From Amoebidium appalachense (Eukaryota; Protista; Ichthyosporea), in NCBI GenBank assembly GCA_963693365.1, contig CAVNZM010000003.1:13982914-14046913 (forward strand): 64,000 bases of DNA, in the 5' to 3' direction. This document shows, piece by piece, positions 22,850-31,514 of this stretch. The first letter of the stretch is position 1; each line of letters begins with the position of its first letter. A program made the position numbers and the translations under genes. The notes beneath the pieces were generated by a model. The model did no database searches. It was not told the DNA's origin and saw only the letters and a list, made by a program, of their open reading frames with translations.

Positions 22850-25800
22850 TTAGTAGGTGCAGAAGTCGGAGTAGTCAGGGTGGCACTGCACGGCCTCACA
22901 CCAGGCGTCGGTGGTGACGGCGGACTTAGACTTGCACTTGTTCTTAAGCTGCCACTCGCAATCCTCGGTTAGGGTCTCCCGCCCAGGGAATACAGGCTCA
23001 ACCAAGTACCTCGCGCACGCTGCGGCGGTAATATTCTTTCCTGCCTTGGGCACAAAGATGCTGGTGTCAAACTTGGCGTAGACGTTAAGGTTGACGGTCT
23101 GTGGGCACGTGCGGATGCCGCTGATGGCGTTGGGTGTGGCCATGCCGTAAAGGACCTTCTTCACCTGTGTGGGTGGAGGTAAATAATTGCGAGGGGTAGG
23201 GATCATGTGTGTTTCTTCTCTTACCCCCTTCTGCCTCTAGCCTTAAATGACCCACACTGGCATATCCATACAACATAGTATTGCTAAAGCTTCAAGTACC
23301 AAACAATCTCAACCATCATTTTCCCCCCTCCACACTGTTTCTTTTTGTTCATCCTAATGGAATGTGGAATACTACTATGCATCACTGCCAACGTTATGGT
23401 AATTGGTGAGCGGAGTGGGGTGGGGGGTGGGGGGAGGGGGTGGGGGGGGTGGGGAAGGGGAGCAGGGGCCCGGGATAGGGGAGGCAGTTGTGTTTGCAGG
23501 TGTGTGTGTGTGTGTGTGTGTGTGTGTGTGTGTGTGTGTGTGTGTGTGTGTGTGTGTGTGTGTGTGTGTGTGTGTGTGTGTGTGTGTGTGTGTTGGGGAG
23601 GGGCTGAGACGGAGCGGGGGGGGAGGGGGGGGAGGGGATGGGGGGGGGGGGGAGAGGGGGGGAGGGGGGGGGGGGGGAGGAGAGTACCTCTTCGACTGTG
23701 AGTGCAGGGAACTGGCTGCGCAGGACAGCAAGCACACCGGCAACGTGGGGAGTAGCCATAGATGTACCGGACATGGTGGTGTAGGCGTTAGAGGCACCCT
23801 TGTAGGCAGAGCTGCAGATAGGCACGTATGAGTGTTAGTTGTGCTTGTGGATTTCAACCCCCCCCCCCCCCCCCCCCCCCCCCCCGCCTTAAGTTAGCAC
23901 TTGCTGTGGGCTCCCCTCCCCACTGCCTCCCCCCATCCCAACCCCCAAAAACACAACACACGCACATACACTCGCAAACGTCCGTCGAAGAGGTACTCTC
24001 CTCCCCCCCCCCCCCCCCCCCCTCCCCCCTCTCCCCCCCCCATCCCCTCCCCCCCTCCCCCCCCCGCTCCCCCCCCCCGCGCCTTTCTCCCCTCCCCTCC
24101 ACAACTTAATATTATTCATTGGTTTTGTTGTGAATAGCCAGTGGCAGTGGAATTTGGCACTTACTAGATATCCACACCAGGCCCGAAGATGTCGACACAG
24201 GTACCCCAGTTGCTCTGCAAGGAAGAAAAAGTCAGTGATGATTCGATTGGCTATTAGTTGGCGGAAATGTGTTTCGATTGGCTATTAGTTGGCAGAAATG
24301 TGATTTATCACGGACTGCCAGTGATAGTATGATCGGCCTAGCACCGTGTGTTGGATTAAGTTCACAGCGACATCATATTCTGCAACCAGGAGGAATGATT
24401 ATATTTTGTGGGGACTGGGGTAACATGGATGACATACATATGTATATGAATGTGAGTTTTTTATGCCCCTCAAGTTGAACGGGGGTGAGGGGAGACGGGG
24501 AGGGGGCGCGCGGGTGGGGGGAGGGGGGGGGGAGGGGGGGGAGGAGGAGGAGTTCCGGGCAAAAGTATTTGTGGGGAAAAGTTGAAGCCGGATGCAGAGT
24601 TTGAGACTTACAAAGTCGGCAATCTTGTCGTTGACATCGGAAGCGCCGACGGTAATGGCGCTTTCGGCAAAGGCGGGGCTGTGCAGACAGGCATCGGCAT
24701 TTGAGTTGCCGGCGGCAATGGCCACCACGACATTGTCGGCAACAAGCGCGTCAACTGCACGCCCTTCAATGTCGCTCTCACGGGGGCCACCAAGGGACAT
24801 GCTGGCAACGGCTTGGCGGGTGCGGTCCTGCAGGAGCCGAGGAGAGTTTGTCATATGGGGTTTAATCGAATGGTGATATCGATCATTGTTTTTGGCTGTT
24901 TGTTTCCGTGATGATCACCGGCTTTCCGTGATGATCACCGGCTAAAGACGCTTGAGAGAGTTAAAGCGGGGAGCAGAGAAATGTTGGTCATGGAGCCAAA
25001 CAGAAGCTTTTTTTTTTTTTTTTTTTTTTTTTTTTTTTTTTTTTTTTTTTTTTTTGGGGGGGGGGGGGGGGGGGGGGGGGGGGGGGGGGGGGGGGAGGGG
25101 GGGGGGGGGGGGGGGGGGGGGGGGGGGGGGAGATGGGAGGGGGGCGTAGGGCGGGAGGGGGGGAAGTGTGAAGGGAGGGGAGGGCGGAAGGGGTAGGGGA
25201 GGGCGGAACTAACCTTGCGGTCCAGGACTGACAGCATGCCGGCGATGACACCTTCGGTCGAACCGCTGCCACTATCGCCGAGCACACGCACGGCAAAAAT
25301 CCTGGCCTTGGGGGCAACACCGGTGTTCTTGCCTGTTACAGGCACATTAGTTGTCGTGTACGCTGAAAGCAATATGCTCTATTATGATTATTAACTTAAG
25401 ATAGAGAACAATTACTATACTAGTCCTCCACGTGATCACACTAAGTAAATTAATCATCATACTCATTATAGTAATCTGTCCTACTGCTTTATCCGTTTTG
25501 TTTTAATACACAAAAAATCCGAGCTGCGACGCACCTGCAATAGTGCCAGAGCAGTGGCTGCCGTGGCCGCTCATGTCTACAAAGGCGGTACCGTTGGGGT
25601 TGGGCTTGCCATCAATCTCGGGAAAGGCACTCCAGTAGTTGAAGGCACGACCCTCAAACTGCTCGTGAGCAACGTTCACACCTGTGTCGATCTGTCGGAA
25701 TATGGCGGATAGTTATTAACTGTACAATGAATATGTTTGGATGTCACTAACTTGTCTACTAGTAGTCCTCCGTAGTGCTCAGTTGCAGATGATATGCATA

Positions 25801-28563: not shown

Positions 28564-31514
28564 ATGTCTCTCACCAAGACCAGCGCCATGCTCCTGGCCG
28601 GAGCTACCATCGTGGCTGCCGATTTCCGCCCCATTGTAAGTCAGAGCCTTCATATTTGTGACCATACTCTGGCCGTGTTATGATTCTAATGAATATGACG
28701 TGTGTTCTTTTGACCGTGATTCAATACAATCGTTACGGTGTTATAATGCTTATGAGACAGTGTTGAAGGGCTAAAGTGGAGAGGGTCAAACGTGGCAACT
28801 TGTGACTAGTACTTGGTTTGGCAAGTCCCGGGTCAGAGTGATGTGTACACTACAGCGAACTCTGCAGCGACCCAAATCAAACGGAGATGAATGTATACGG
28901 TGTGGCGCCCTTAAGGCCCTTAAGTTTATTGATGAGCATAGGTAGGGCTGAATATTGTTCTGTATCAACAGCAAGGAAATTCTTTAGCGAGTAGCAAGTG
29001 ATTGGGACAGGCAGGACATATAATTCTCAGTGTACTCGAACGATGTCAATGATGTCCAGAATCAGATGGGAAAAAATTGTTGCACACGTTAACCCCAACA
29101 ATTATTGCAGGCAAACCGCGGCGCGGTGGTGCCAGGCTCCTTCTACCTGCGTGTCGGTTCCCCTGCCCAGGCTGCCAAGCTCCAAGCGATTGACCCGCGT
29201 GTGCAAGTCTTCCCCAGCATGAACGGTGGCTTTGCCCGCCTGAACGTTACTGTCGACACAACTCAAGGCACGATCAGCGGCCCCGATTTCCCCGTTCTGG
29301 TCAAGCTCATTAACGCTGCCACGTACGTGGAGGAGGACGTGTGGATGTTCAGCCCTCGCTTTGTGACCCAGCAGCCCGCGAACCCCACTGAGATTAAGGT
29401 GTGGCCTGGCACCGACAACGGGCTCCAGTCCAACGACTATTACACGGGTGCCAACTGGGCAAAGAAGGCGCTTTCTCCTGCAAGCAGCACCTATCCCGGC
29501 TTTGGCCGCAACGGTGAGGGTGTCGACGTGTATGTCATCGGCAACGGCATCAACGTCAACCATCCCCAGTTCGAGGGTAAGTTGTTCCCCCACCCACCCA
29601 TCCACCCACCCACCCACCAACCCACCTACTGTATGCACGACTCACACACACACCCAGGTCATGCAAGACGTTCCAGTGTTTAGATAAGCTAGCTTACTGT
29701 ACCTGTTTATAATTATATGTTGTCATAAATGCCAAAAAGATGCACTTCTAATGGAGTATACCCTGCCCACCTGCCCACAGGCCGTGCTTCACACCTTTAC
29801 CCCAAGGGGGCAGACTCCAGTGATGAGACGGGTGTGAGCACCCTCGAGGCCGGCATCATTGCCAGCAAGGACTTCGGTGTTGCCCCCAAGGCAAACATTC
29901 TCTCCGTGAAGGTGCCCCTGGACCCCAACACTAAAATGTCGCGGGCCACCGACTTCTACGCTGCCGCCGATGCCATCCTCACCAAAGTCCAGAACACCGA
30001 TAGGCCCGCCGTGGTCTACACCGGCCTGGTCGGCCAATCTGACTCTGGCTCGACCACAAACATTTTCCGTTTCCTTATCAACAACGCGCCAGCGGGTAAA
30101 GTGCATGGGTCGGCCACCGGACAGTCATGGAGCGACTCGTGCAAGATGCTTGGTGGTGGCCTGAGCTATGGCGCCGATTACTTCATGACCGGCGCTGCCA
30201 TGCCCAACGGCAAGATCCTGAACAGGAATGCCCAAGCCAACGGCGACGTAGAGGTCATGTCTCCGTATGGCGGGTAAGTAGACCAAAATTTCACTATGGA
30301 AAACAGTGAGATCGAGGTGGAAAAATAAAAGAAAAATAAGGAACACACACGCAAACACACACAATCGGATACACAACACACCCACCCACACACACCGTGA
30401 CACACACGCGCACACAACTACACGCATGCACACACACACACACACACACACACACACACACACACACACACACACACACACACACACACACACACACACA
30501 CACACACACACACACGCACATGTACATGCTCAGAGCAAAAGCCTGCATCATGACGCGCACACATACCTACATACCTGGTCAAACTACACAAGCACACCTC
30601 TCACACAAACCTTCTACCCCTGCAGCTGTGTCCACCTGTCGGCTCCCGGGTTCAACCTCAAGAGCACCAGCAAGGACGGTGCCAGCGCCTACATCTCCGG
30701 CCAGAATGCGTAAGTTTTTCTGCTTGCTCGTGCCGTGTTTTGTTCCTGTTCTTTATCCATGTGTATAAAATTGCATGCTTGATTGACGCCATGAAGACGC
30801 CATGAAGTGTGTATGTGAAGCTCAGTAGTCTGCCCATTGTGCATTGTTTGTTTGGGGAAGAAATGGGGCTGGTACTGATCAAAAATTTTCTATCACAGCG
30901 CTGCTGCCGTCACTGCAGGCCTTCTTGCTGGTTTCCGCAGCGCCTACCCTGCCTACACCCAGGCTGAGGTAATACCCCTGATTCTGTCCCCCCCCCCCCC
31001 CCCCCCCCCTCCCCCCCTCCCTCCCCCTCCCCCCCCCCCCCCCTCCCGCCTCTACCCCTTGTCGGCCGCAGAGCAGTTTACATGCTTTATACTTTCTATT
31101 TATCTATTTCTGCTGTTTCGCAATGTTTCGCTAACGGTTACCGAATTTTTCTCCCTCTTCCGTACTAGTGACTAACCCGGCCCCAACCACACACAGGTCA
31201 AGACCGCCATCCTCACTGGTGTTCAAAACATCGACGCGGACATTAACGCAGGCGGCATGATGTTCTCCCACAACTCCCCCCGCGTGTTCGACCTTAAGAA
31301 CGCATGCCGCAGCTACGCACCCCACATTAAGGACGATTTCTGCCGTGCGGCCGAGTGCTCTGCCGATTACAAGACAATGTGCGAGATCAATGCAAAGGAG
31401 AAACCCTCGAAGGTGTGCATGTCCATTATGAAGAACATCCCTGATAGCTGGTGCGCGGCCACCGGTTGCCCCTCCGATTATTCCAGCATCTGCCAGTGGA
31501 AGTGCAATGCCTAA
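28564..31514 (+). CDS. Secreted subtilisin-fold pseudoprotease (intact ORF, triad replaced); exons 28564-28635, 29111-29576, 29781-30273, 30626-30709, 30899-30968, 31197-31514
   Basis: Signal peptide MSLTKTSAMLLAGATIVAA; I9-like propeptide (VPGSFYL, NGGFARL, YVEED); GEGVDVYVIGNGINVNHPQFEGRA; DETGVSTLEAG; FGVAPKANILSVKV; CVHLSAPG; ISGQNAAAAVTAG; two C-terminal 4-Cys modules. No stops or frameshifts after splicing. Confidence 0.88.

Follow-up and report, generated by a model that had tools for sequence, protein, structure and literature searches.

The stretch of DNA analysed here, called the window below, consists of 64,000 nucleotides of Amoebidium appalachense (Ichthyosporea; assembly GCA_963693365.1, contig CAVNZM010000003.1, positions 13,982,914-14,046,913 of the forward strand). 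The locus of interest, window positions 22850..31514, holds two facing genes, a subtilisin with an intact catalytic set on the left (gene L) and a relative on the right that has lost all four catalytic residues (gene R). A preliminary description of this DNA had already pointed out the head-to-head arrangement and its spacer, and both gene models close with GT-AG introns on the same boundaries:

22850..27074, minus strand: gene L, S8A subtilisin of the proteinase K type in which no catalytic residue is lost, 476 aa in 9 exons (GT-AG model)
27074-26997, 26658-26536, 26187-25939, 25691-25535, 25332-25214, 24827-24612, 24214-24165, 23811-23688 and 23164-22850, minus strand: exons of gene L (GT-AG sites)
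27075..28563, no strand: divergent spacer, 1489 bp from ATG to ATG (gene models)
28564..31514, plus strand: gene R, pseudo-subtilisin, 6 exons, 500 aa, 5 GT-AG introns, without stops or frameshifts
28564-28635, 29111-29576, 29781-30273, 30626-30709, 30899-30968 and 31197-31514, plus strand: exons of gene R (GT-AG sites)

The frame of gene L has no internal stop, all its introns are GT-AG, and the protein is ordered as signal peptide, prodomain, catalytic domain and one C-terminal Cys unit. The motifs IDTG, GHGSH, AAGNS and SGTSMA are all present, with the catalytic codons D152 at 25688, H193 at 25565, N283 at 24707 and S348 at 23762, and in a hidden Markov model (HMM) alignment these residues line up with those of 11 S8A comparator domains. 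Exon 6 alone matches PF00082 (34.3 bits, cut-off 21.8, E 2e-08), the best PDB matches are proteinase K and aqualysin-1 (E 4e-10), and PCSK9 chains are also among the PDB matches. With the order D/H/S, the oxyanion Asn and PF00082 above cut-off, L is an S8A subtilase that is predicted to be active. It has all the catalytic residues of the proteinase K/aqualysin subgroup of S8A (PF00082), from which both L and R differ by an undescribed four-Cys unit.

Gene R has six clean exons, as had been described, and its catalytic positions read as follows:

29540..29542, plus strand: Gly168 at the position of the catalytic Asp (alignments)
29834..29836, plus strand: Val198 at the position of the catalytic His (alignments)
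30122..30124, plus strand: Gln294 at the position of the oxyanion Asn (alignments)
30705..30707, plus strand: Asn371 at the position of the catalytic Ser (alignments)

These four substitutions, which the preliminary description had claimed, are the same in four of four MAFFT modes and in the HMM alignment, and those at the Asp and His positions are also seen in direct alignments to solved proteases. An alternative Asp, His or Ser, which that description had named as a point to be checked, is found on none of the sites with any of the four aligners. Against an HMM of the 11 comparator domains, built here, R scores 148 bits over residues 134-404 with insertions of at most about 11 residues, and its best PDB matches are proteinase K and fungal alkaline protease. 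A fold search places subtilisins on top, weakly (E 0.09), with poor single-exon structure models (predicted local distance difference test, pLDDT, 50 and 38), and a Pfam scan of single R exons gave no match. Judged by its alignment, R is an S8A homologue across the whole catalytic domain, and, with both the Asp-His-Ser triad and the oxyanion Asn gone, it is a non-peptidase homologue.

Both proteins are hydrophobic at the start (hydropathy of the best 11 residues 2.3 in L and 2.2 in R) and have no later membrane segment, from which we infer that both are secreted. The I9-like propeptide attributed earlier to R stood up in part:

29111..29365, plus strand: prodomain region of R, probably I9-like, end approximate (motif alignment; low-confidence model)

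Short motifs in this region speak for such a propeptide, including the prodomain-end motif, which is kept in the alignment, and a model with a pLDDT of only 38 has the order beta-alpha-beta-beta-alpha-beta and ferredoxin-like matches (Z at most 4.8), with no I9 entry among the matches listed. On the other side, Pfam gave no I9 (PF05922) match on the exon pieces scanned, exon 2 included, and the R prodomain failed to align with the comparator-domain HMM, unlike that of L. About 26 additional residues separate the prodomain end from the mature start in R.

Several lines of evidence show R to be a living gene. The G and C content of third codon positions (GC3) is 0.74 in R and 0.71 in L, as against a GC content of 0.45-0.47 in the introns (0.45 beside the exons of R), and A occupies just 6% of the third positions in both genes, so the preference for codons ending in C or G that had been remarked on in R is real. 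The relative synonymous codon usage of R correlates at 0.91 with that of L and at 0.16 with that of the ceramide kinase frame in the window. The adaptation of R to the codons of L is 0.65, compared with 0.35-0.47 in neighbouring coding stretches (six of six) and at most 0.41 in synonymous shuffles (n=500). At the 109 residues that are identical in L and R the codon is identical at 60, where 52 would be expected; synonymous sites between the two genes are thus near saturation, and the codon bias has been maintained and is not the trace of a recent copy. It probably reflects high expression of both genes.

Transcripts add to this. The run X1, one sample from one study, was taken as RNA by guess only, and no run among the matches is on record as RNA, but its contigs join exons 1/2 and exons 3/4 of L at the predicted sites (the exon 2/3 join is a loose end), and since two introns are thus skipped X1 holds spliced RNA. 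A transcript of R, which the preliminary description had wished to see, is represented by four X1 contigs without mismatches, which cover 29170-29332 in exon 2, 31195-31527 at exon 6 and 31564-31977 in the 3' flank; the last of these helps to define the end of the gene:

31515..31985, plus strand: 3' untranslated region of R, with AATAAA near 31978 (X1 contig 31564-31977 and sequence)

No X1 contigs lie on the R introns or the spacer beyond repeat scraps of 18-21 bases. An apparent depth on exon 3 and intron 3 of R was discarded as repeat scraps of 18-31 bases, and the coverage of the locus by runs X2 and X3 is limited to repeats.

R also has a dead relative. When R exon 3 was searched against 1.84 billion representatives (E at most 0.001), 11 matches were obtained; ten are S8 proteins and have the motif around the catalytic His, which one, P0017, lacks. 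P0017 is a fragment of 213 aa on a single Logan contig of 1726 bases, and the Atlas groups it with subtilases (0.94). Once a Phe-rich stretch of 26 residues that resembles a read-through intron is removed, P0017 scores 174 with R (36% identity over 173), 41 with L and no more than 69 with any of the ten other S8 proteins. Its tail of 29 residues, which lay outside the search query, fits R exon 4 over the whole length (z 7.4, with 4.2 for the next best fit). At the catalytic positions the His is replaced by Thr, the oxyanion Asn by Val and the Ser by Pro (three of four modes; a gap in the fourth), and the fragment ends short of the Asp. The read-through lies at the site of R intron 3 and the fragment stops at the site of R intron 4, neither of which exists in L, so to judge from the protein P0017 appears to share both introns with R. 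Being 36% identical to R and likewise dead, P0017 makes the dead state common to sequences that are about 64% diverged, and the two make up a small pseudo-subtilisin family. A profile of R and P0017 against proteins of near length found one of 1591, P0017 itself; word-index searches among longer proteins gave 0 of 578 candidates for R exon 3 and 0 of 24 for the last exon of L. From the GT-AG splice sites, the codon bias, the RNA-type contigs and P0017 it follows that R is not a decaying pseudogene, and it is almost certainly a functional pseudoenzyme of some kind.

L and R align with 29% identity over 367 columns (E 4e-27). Their intron at E|VK stands in the identical alignment column, as had been noted, and the other four introns of R match none of the eight in L; by our arithmetic the chance that one of the 5 x 8 intron pairs would coincide exactly on about 1430 positions is near 0.03. 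The second intron that was said to be held in common, in phase 0 after the signal peptides, falls in different columns (60 and 32), which leaves one of five R introns shown to be shared. The view that the genes are paralogues is based on their adjacency, the one shared intron and the Cys unit; the trees are unresolved and give no decision, with the join of R and P0017 flagged as a long-branch one. A related locus was found in none of 558 and 410 pattern matches in metagenomes, 88 viral ones and 39 from prokaryotes.

The spacer lies in the longest stretch of the window that is free of simple repeats, counted as long homopolymers and dinucleotide repeats (25131-30428, 5298 bases; next 2697), a stretch that also takes in the 5' half of each gene. 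The distance from the pair to the nearest recognisable frame is about 4.0 kb on one side and 5.8 kb on the other, in both cases more than the length of the spacer. The two upstream regions resemble each other:

27075..27274, minus strand: upstream 200 bases of L, with shared 11-mers at -193, -136, -93 and -22 and a TATA-like element near -105 (sequence)
28364..28563, plus strand: upstream 200 bases of R, with the matching 11-mers at -169, -121, -182 and -38 and a TATA-like element near -124 (sequence)

Four 11-mers in gene sense (at most one mismatch) are common to both, three of them collinear, where 0.26 would be expected and none of 300 dinucleotide shuffles reached this number; in the opposite orientation there were no shared 11-mers at any of seven settings. 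The 10-mer TACACGTACC occurs twice in the 64 kb, once ahead of each ATG. These motifs suggest that the two genes are regulated jointly, or else that highly expressed genes of this organism have such motifs in common. As each gene has a TATA-like element of its own, about 1.26 kb apart, two facing promoters are likely. An interrupted palindrome, GATCTG-N4/5-CAGAT, was picked by eye at two sites (27259-27274 and 28052-28067), both in the spacer; AGATCT alone is not enriched.

What R has kept and lost can be seen at 44 positions where 80% or more of the comparators agree, 14 of them in catalytic and substrate-binding segments and 30 elsewhere. L retains 38 of the 44 (26 of 30 outside the cleft and 12 of 14 in it) and R 28 (22 of 30 and 6 of 14). 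The core Gly and Pro residues are retained in R, and so is a pair, C300/C345, that P0017 also has, while both substrate-binding strands are rewritten (the GSGS-type loop to NTKM and SLGG to GLVG), as are the catalytic loops. It is these two cleft strands that substrates and canonical S8 inhibitors bind. The remodelled cleft leans against an inhibitor decoy of the XLP1 type and would favour a non-catalytic binding or regulatory partner.

Both genes end in a small Cys-rich unit of 26 residues:

22859..22936, minus strand: one four-Cys unit in L, aa 449-474 (same unit as in R)
31305..31493, plus strand: four-Cys unit of R in two tandem copies, residues 432-457 and residues 469-494 (pattern C-x8-D-x-W/F-C-x-A-x2-C-x2-DY-x3-C)

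The preliminary description had given both genes the same C-terminal Cys module, and this is right as to the unit but not as to its number, for L ends in one copy and R in two. Neither Pfam, NCBIfam, PDB sequences and the Atlas nor the homologue search yielded a match to the unit, and the last exon of R as a whole is also without a match in the Atlas. We regard the unit as a candidate new extracellular binding module. Two viral and 33 prokaryote matches to a DNA pattern of the unit were rejected as chance, about 35 being expected in prokaryotes by estimate; 15 of the 35 matches obtained in all contain stops, one lies in a long open reading frame of another Cys-rich type, and the best is no better than E 0.015.

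We hypothesize, tentatively and with slightly less than even confidence, that R is a secreted, non-cutting binding or scaffold protein that is made together with the active protease L. An ancient inverted duplication, for which the E|VK intron and the Cys unit are the basis, would have given rise to L and R, and the two would be highly and jointly expressed from two facing promoters with shared motifs. R would be unable to cut off its own prodomain and would thus be secreted with the prodomain still attached, if the lengthened linker is not trimmed by L or some other protease. It would keep the fold, and with its rebuilt cleft and doubled Cys unit it would bind an extracellular partner or the matrix in a process that L serves. 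Subtilisin catalytic mutants do not autoprocess and CspC keeps its prodomain across a degenerate site (PMC7200643, PMC6636752), so R should be exported with its prodomain in place over the rebuilt cleft, unless it is cut in trans.

A number of observations speak against this proposal. No partner, ligand or localisation is known for R, and the Cys unit has no annotated relative. No X1 contig bridges an R splice junction or spans a pseudo-catalytic codon, and the finding of both transcripts in one run from one study does not amount to co-regulation. The setting of the 11-mer test was chosen after the matches had been seen, and window backgrounds reach the same count in 7 of 2520 cases at that setting and in 8 to 277 of 2520 at six others (0.3-11%). 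The difference between cleft and elsewhere in R is not significant (Fisher p 0.09), and with a branch length of 3.4-3.5 for R against 0.65 for L general drift could account for it. Over the catalytic domain alone R scores 241 with L, less than with two matches picked by the R query (265 and 256), and a clade of L and R is neither supported nor rejected (approximately unbiased test, p-AU 0.37). The co-expressed functional partner of the preliminary description has thus come through in part: R is a real, transcribed and selected pseudoenzyme, and the upstream motifs and the codon bias point to co-expression; a physical or functional link to L is a conjecture.

It is possible, although we consider it rather doubtful, that R regulates L directly, as an inhibitor, a stabiliser or a chaperone (by its retained prodomain or in a heterodimer), or as the sensor of a signal that switches L on. 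There are precedents, as the pseudoproteases CspA and CspC of C. difficile regulate the active CspB (PMC7200643), and in Plasmodium SUB1 is inhibited by the product of a gene that encodes a propeptide alone and lies beside subtilisin genes (PMC6993865); the prodomain-end motifs kept in R and the upstream motifs common to R and L would fit such a role. The failure of the R prodomain to align as that of L does tells against it, as does the failure of the CspC prodomain in trans (PMC7200643), and a protein of 500 aa with a doubled Cys unit probably exceeds what an inhibitor prodomain would need. A wider form of the idea, to which we give about the same modest credence, is that L and R make up an old co-regulated protease/pseudoprotease module with one divergent control region, in which the dead R would bind or gate L and both would share an extracellular target by way of the four-Cys unit. 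If this is true, the pair would be a eukaryotic and independently evolved counterpart of the clostridial Csp switch.

That R serves a separate non-catalytic function, and that the head-to-head layout is just a relic of the inverted duplication, seems unlikely to us. The identity of 29% with L, the one shared intron of five and the separate TATA-like elements agree with it; what weighs on the other side is that the upstream 11-mers have persisted despite near-saturated synonymous sites and that TACACGTACC stands before each ATG only.

More unlikely again is a bodyguard decoy that would soak up the protease inhibitors of hosts, prey or competitors and so free L, in the way of XLP1, whose binding to the host inhibitor GmGIP1 is tighter than that of XEG1 (PMC12003678, PMC5814044). 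The layout is the same as that of PsXEG1/PsXLP1, a head-to-head pair in 26 Phytophthora species (PMC12003678), and R is likewise an inactive secreted paralogue whose co-expression with L is likely. A decoy needs an intact inhibitor-binding surface, however, and in R the strands and catalytic loops are rewritten, with P0017 different again at these places; an uncleaved prodomain would moreover be expected to cover the cleft, if R behaves as CspC does (PMC6636752). Among the three kinds of role offered in the preliminary description the inhibitor decoy is for these reasons the least likely.

It is very improbable that R is an enzyme with rebuilt chemistry, be it another catalytic set or self-cleavage based on Asn371. 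The helix that once carried the His has Glu202, and the nucleophile position holds Asn, which could be taken to hint at it, but P0017 has Gln and Pro at these two places. The S53 sedolisins use a Ser nucleophile with Glu-x3-Asp and an oxyanion Asp. The nucleophile elbow of R has no Ser, and hence R has no Ser-Glu-Asp set of this type; Asn371 at the nucleophile and Gln294 at the oxyanion position rule out that it is an S53 sedolisin. Least probable of all is a pseudogene or an assembly artefact, since the four altered codons without an RNA contig and the long branch have to be set against an intact frame with its splice sites, a strong codon bias, transcript pieces, the dead relative P0017 and the fact that three of the four catalytic changes require 2-3 base substitutions each.

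Among known systems, R as a non-cutting partner would work most like CspC and CspA beside CspB in Clostridioides difficile, and yet it is not a Csp. The likeness lies in the S8 fold, the degenerate triad, the gene beside an active S8 paralogue and the lack of autoprocessing, by which the prodomain stays on (in R by prediction). The Csp proteins belong to a bacterial spore, have a jelly-roll insertion of about 130 aa and are encoded in an operon or as a fusion, and CspC has lost His and Ser but still has Asp105. R in contrast is eukaryotic and proteinase K-like, has a signal peptide and no jelly-roll insertion, has lost all four residues and stands head-to-head with L; its exon 3 scores 16.9 bits against the CspC model NF040808, the cut-off of which is 675. 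PsXEG1 and PsXLP1 (PMC12003678, PMC5814044) are similar as a secreted active enzyme and its inactive paralogue placed head-to-head after duplication, but they are GH12 glucanases and not proteases, while R is just 29% identical to L, has a rewritten cleft and has no known inhibitor. PCSK9 (PMC8551645) is, like the R that we propose, a secreted, inactive and prodomain-bound binding protein on a proteinase K-type scaffold with a Cys-rich C-terminal domain. It cleaves itself once, however, for which catalytic residues are needed that R does not have, and the C-terminal units of L and R are without a PDB sequence match. SUB1-ProM of Plasmodium (PMC6993865) is also a non-catalytic gene next to subtilisins that could regulate its neighbour by a propeptide fold, but it is a stand-alone propeptide, and R retains an entire subtilase domain and Cys units.

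In the literature covered, which leaves most subscription journals aside, CspC and CspA of bacteria are the S8 pseudoproteases to which a function has been assigned, and there is no description of the L/R pair or of a fully dead, secreted eukaryotic paralogue of the proteinase K type. The concept of an active/dead enzyme pair is already established, so that what is gained is a new instance with a different layout and no new principle, but the pair is a clean test case for why a dead subtilisin is kept, as a regulator, a scaffold or a decoy.

Some minor observations were made along the way. One of the 11 comparator domains, P0013b, has Ala at the Ser position. The protein, P0013 (EukProt, Cyanophora paradoxa), has tandem S8 domains, the first with Ser and the second with Ala at the catalytic Ser, and may be a fused active/dead pair or a gene-model error. 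The window is intron-rich with numerous poly-C and CA runs, and Rfam gave no matches in its 64 kb. Outside the locus it contains the following features:

5113-8947, plus strand: ceramide kinase-like gene (PF00781, PF19280), with weak codon bias
about 16500-18800, plus strand: exons of a p24/GOLD gene (emp24/gp25L, PF01105)
55980-56230, minus strand: exon of a ubiquitin-like domain protein (PF00240, weak, E 0.04)
62485-63447, minus strand: open frame of 321 codons, coiled-coil-like, with PPxY-like motifs at its end and no Pfam match above cut-off
about 37820-38010 and about 38320-38500: a non-coding stretch of about 180 bases in two copies about 490 bases apart

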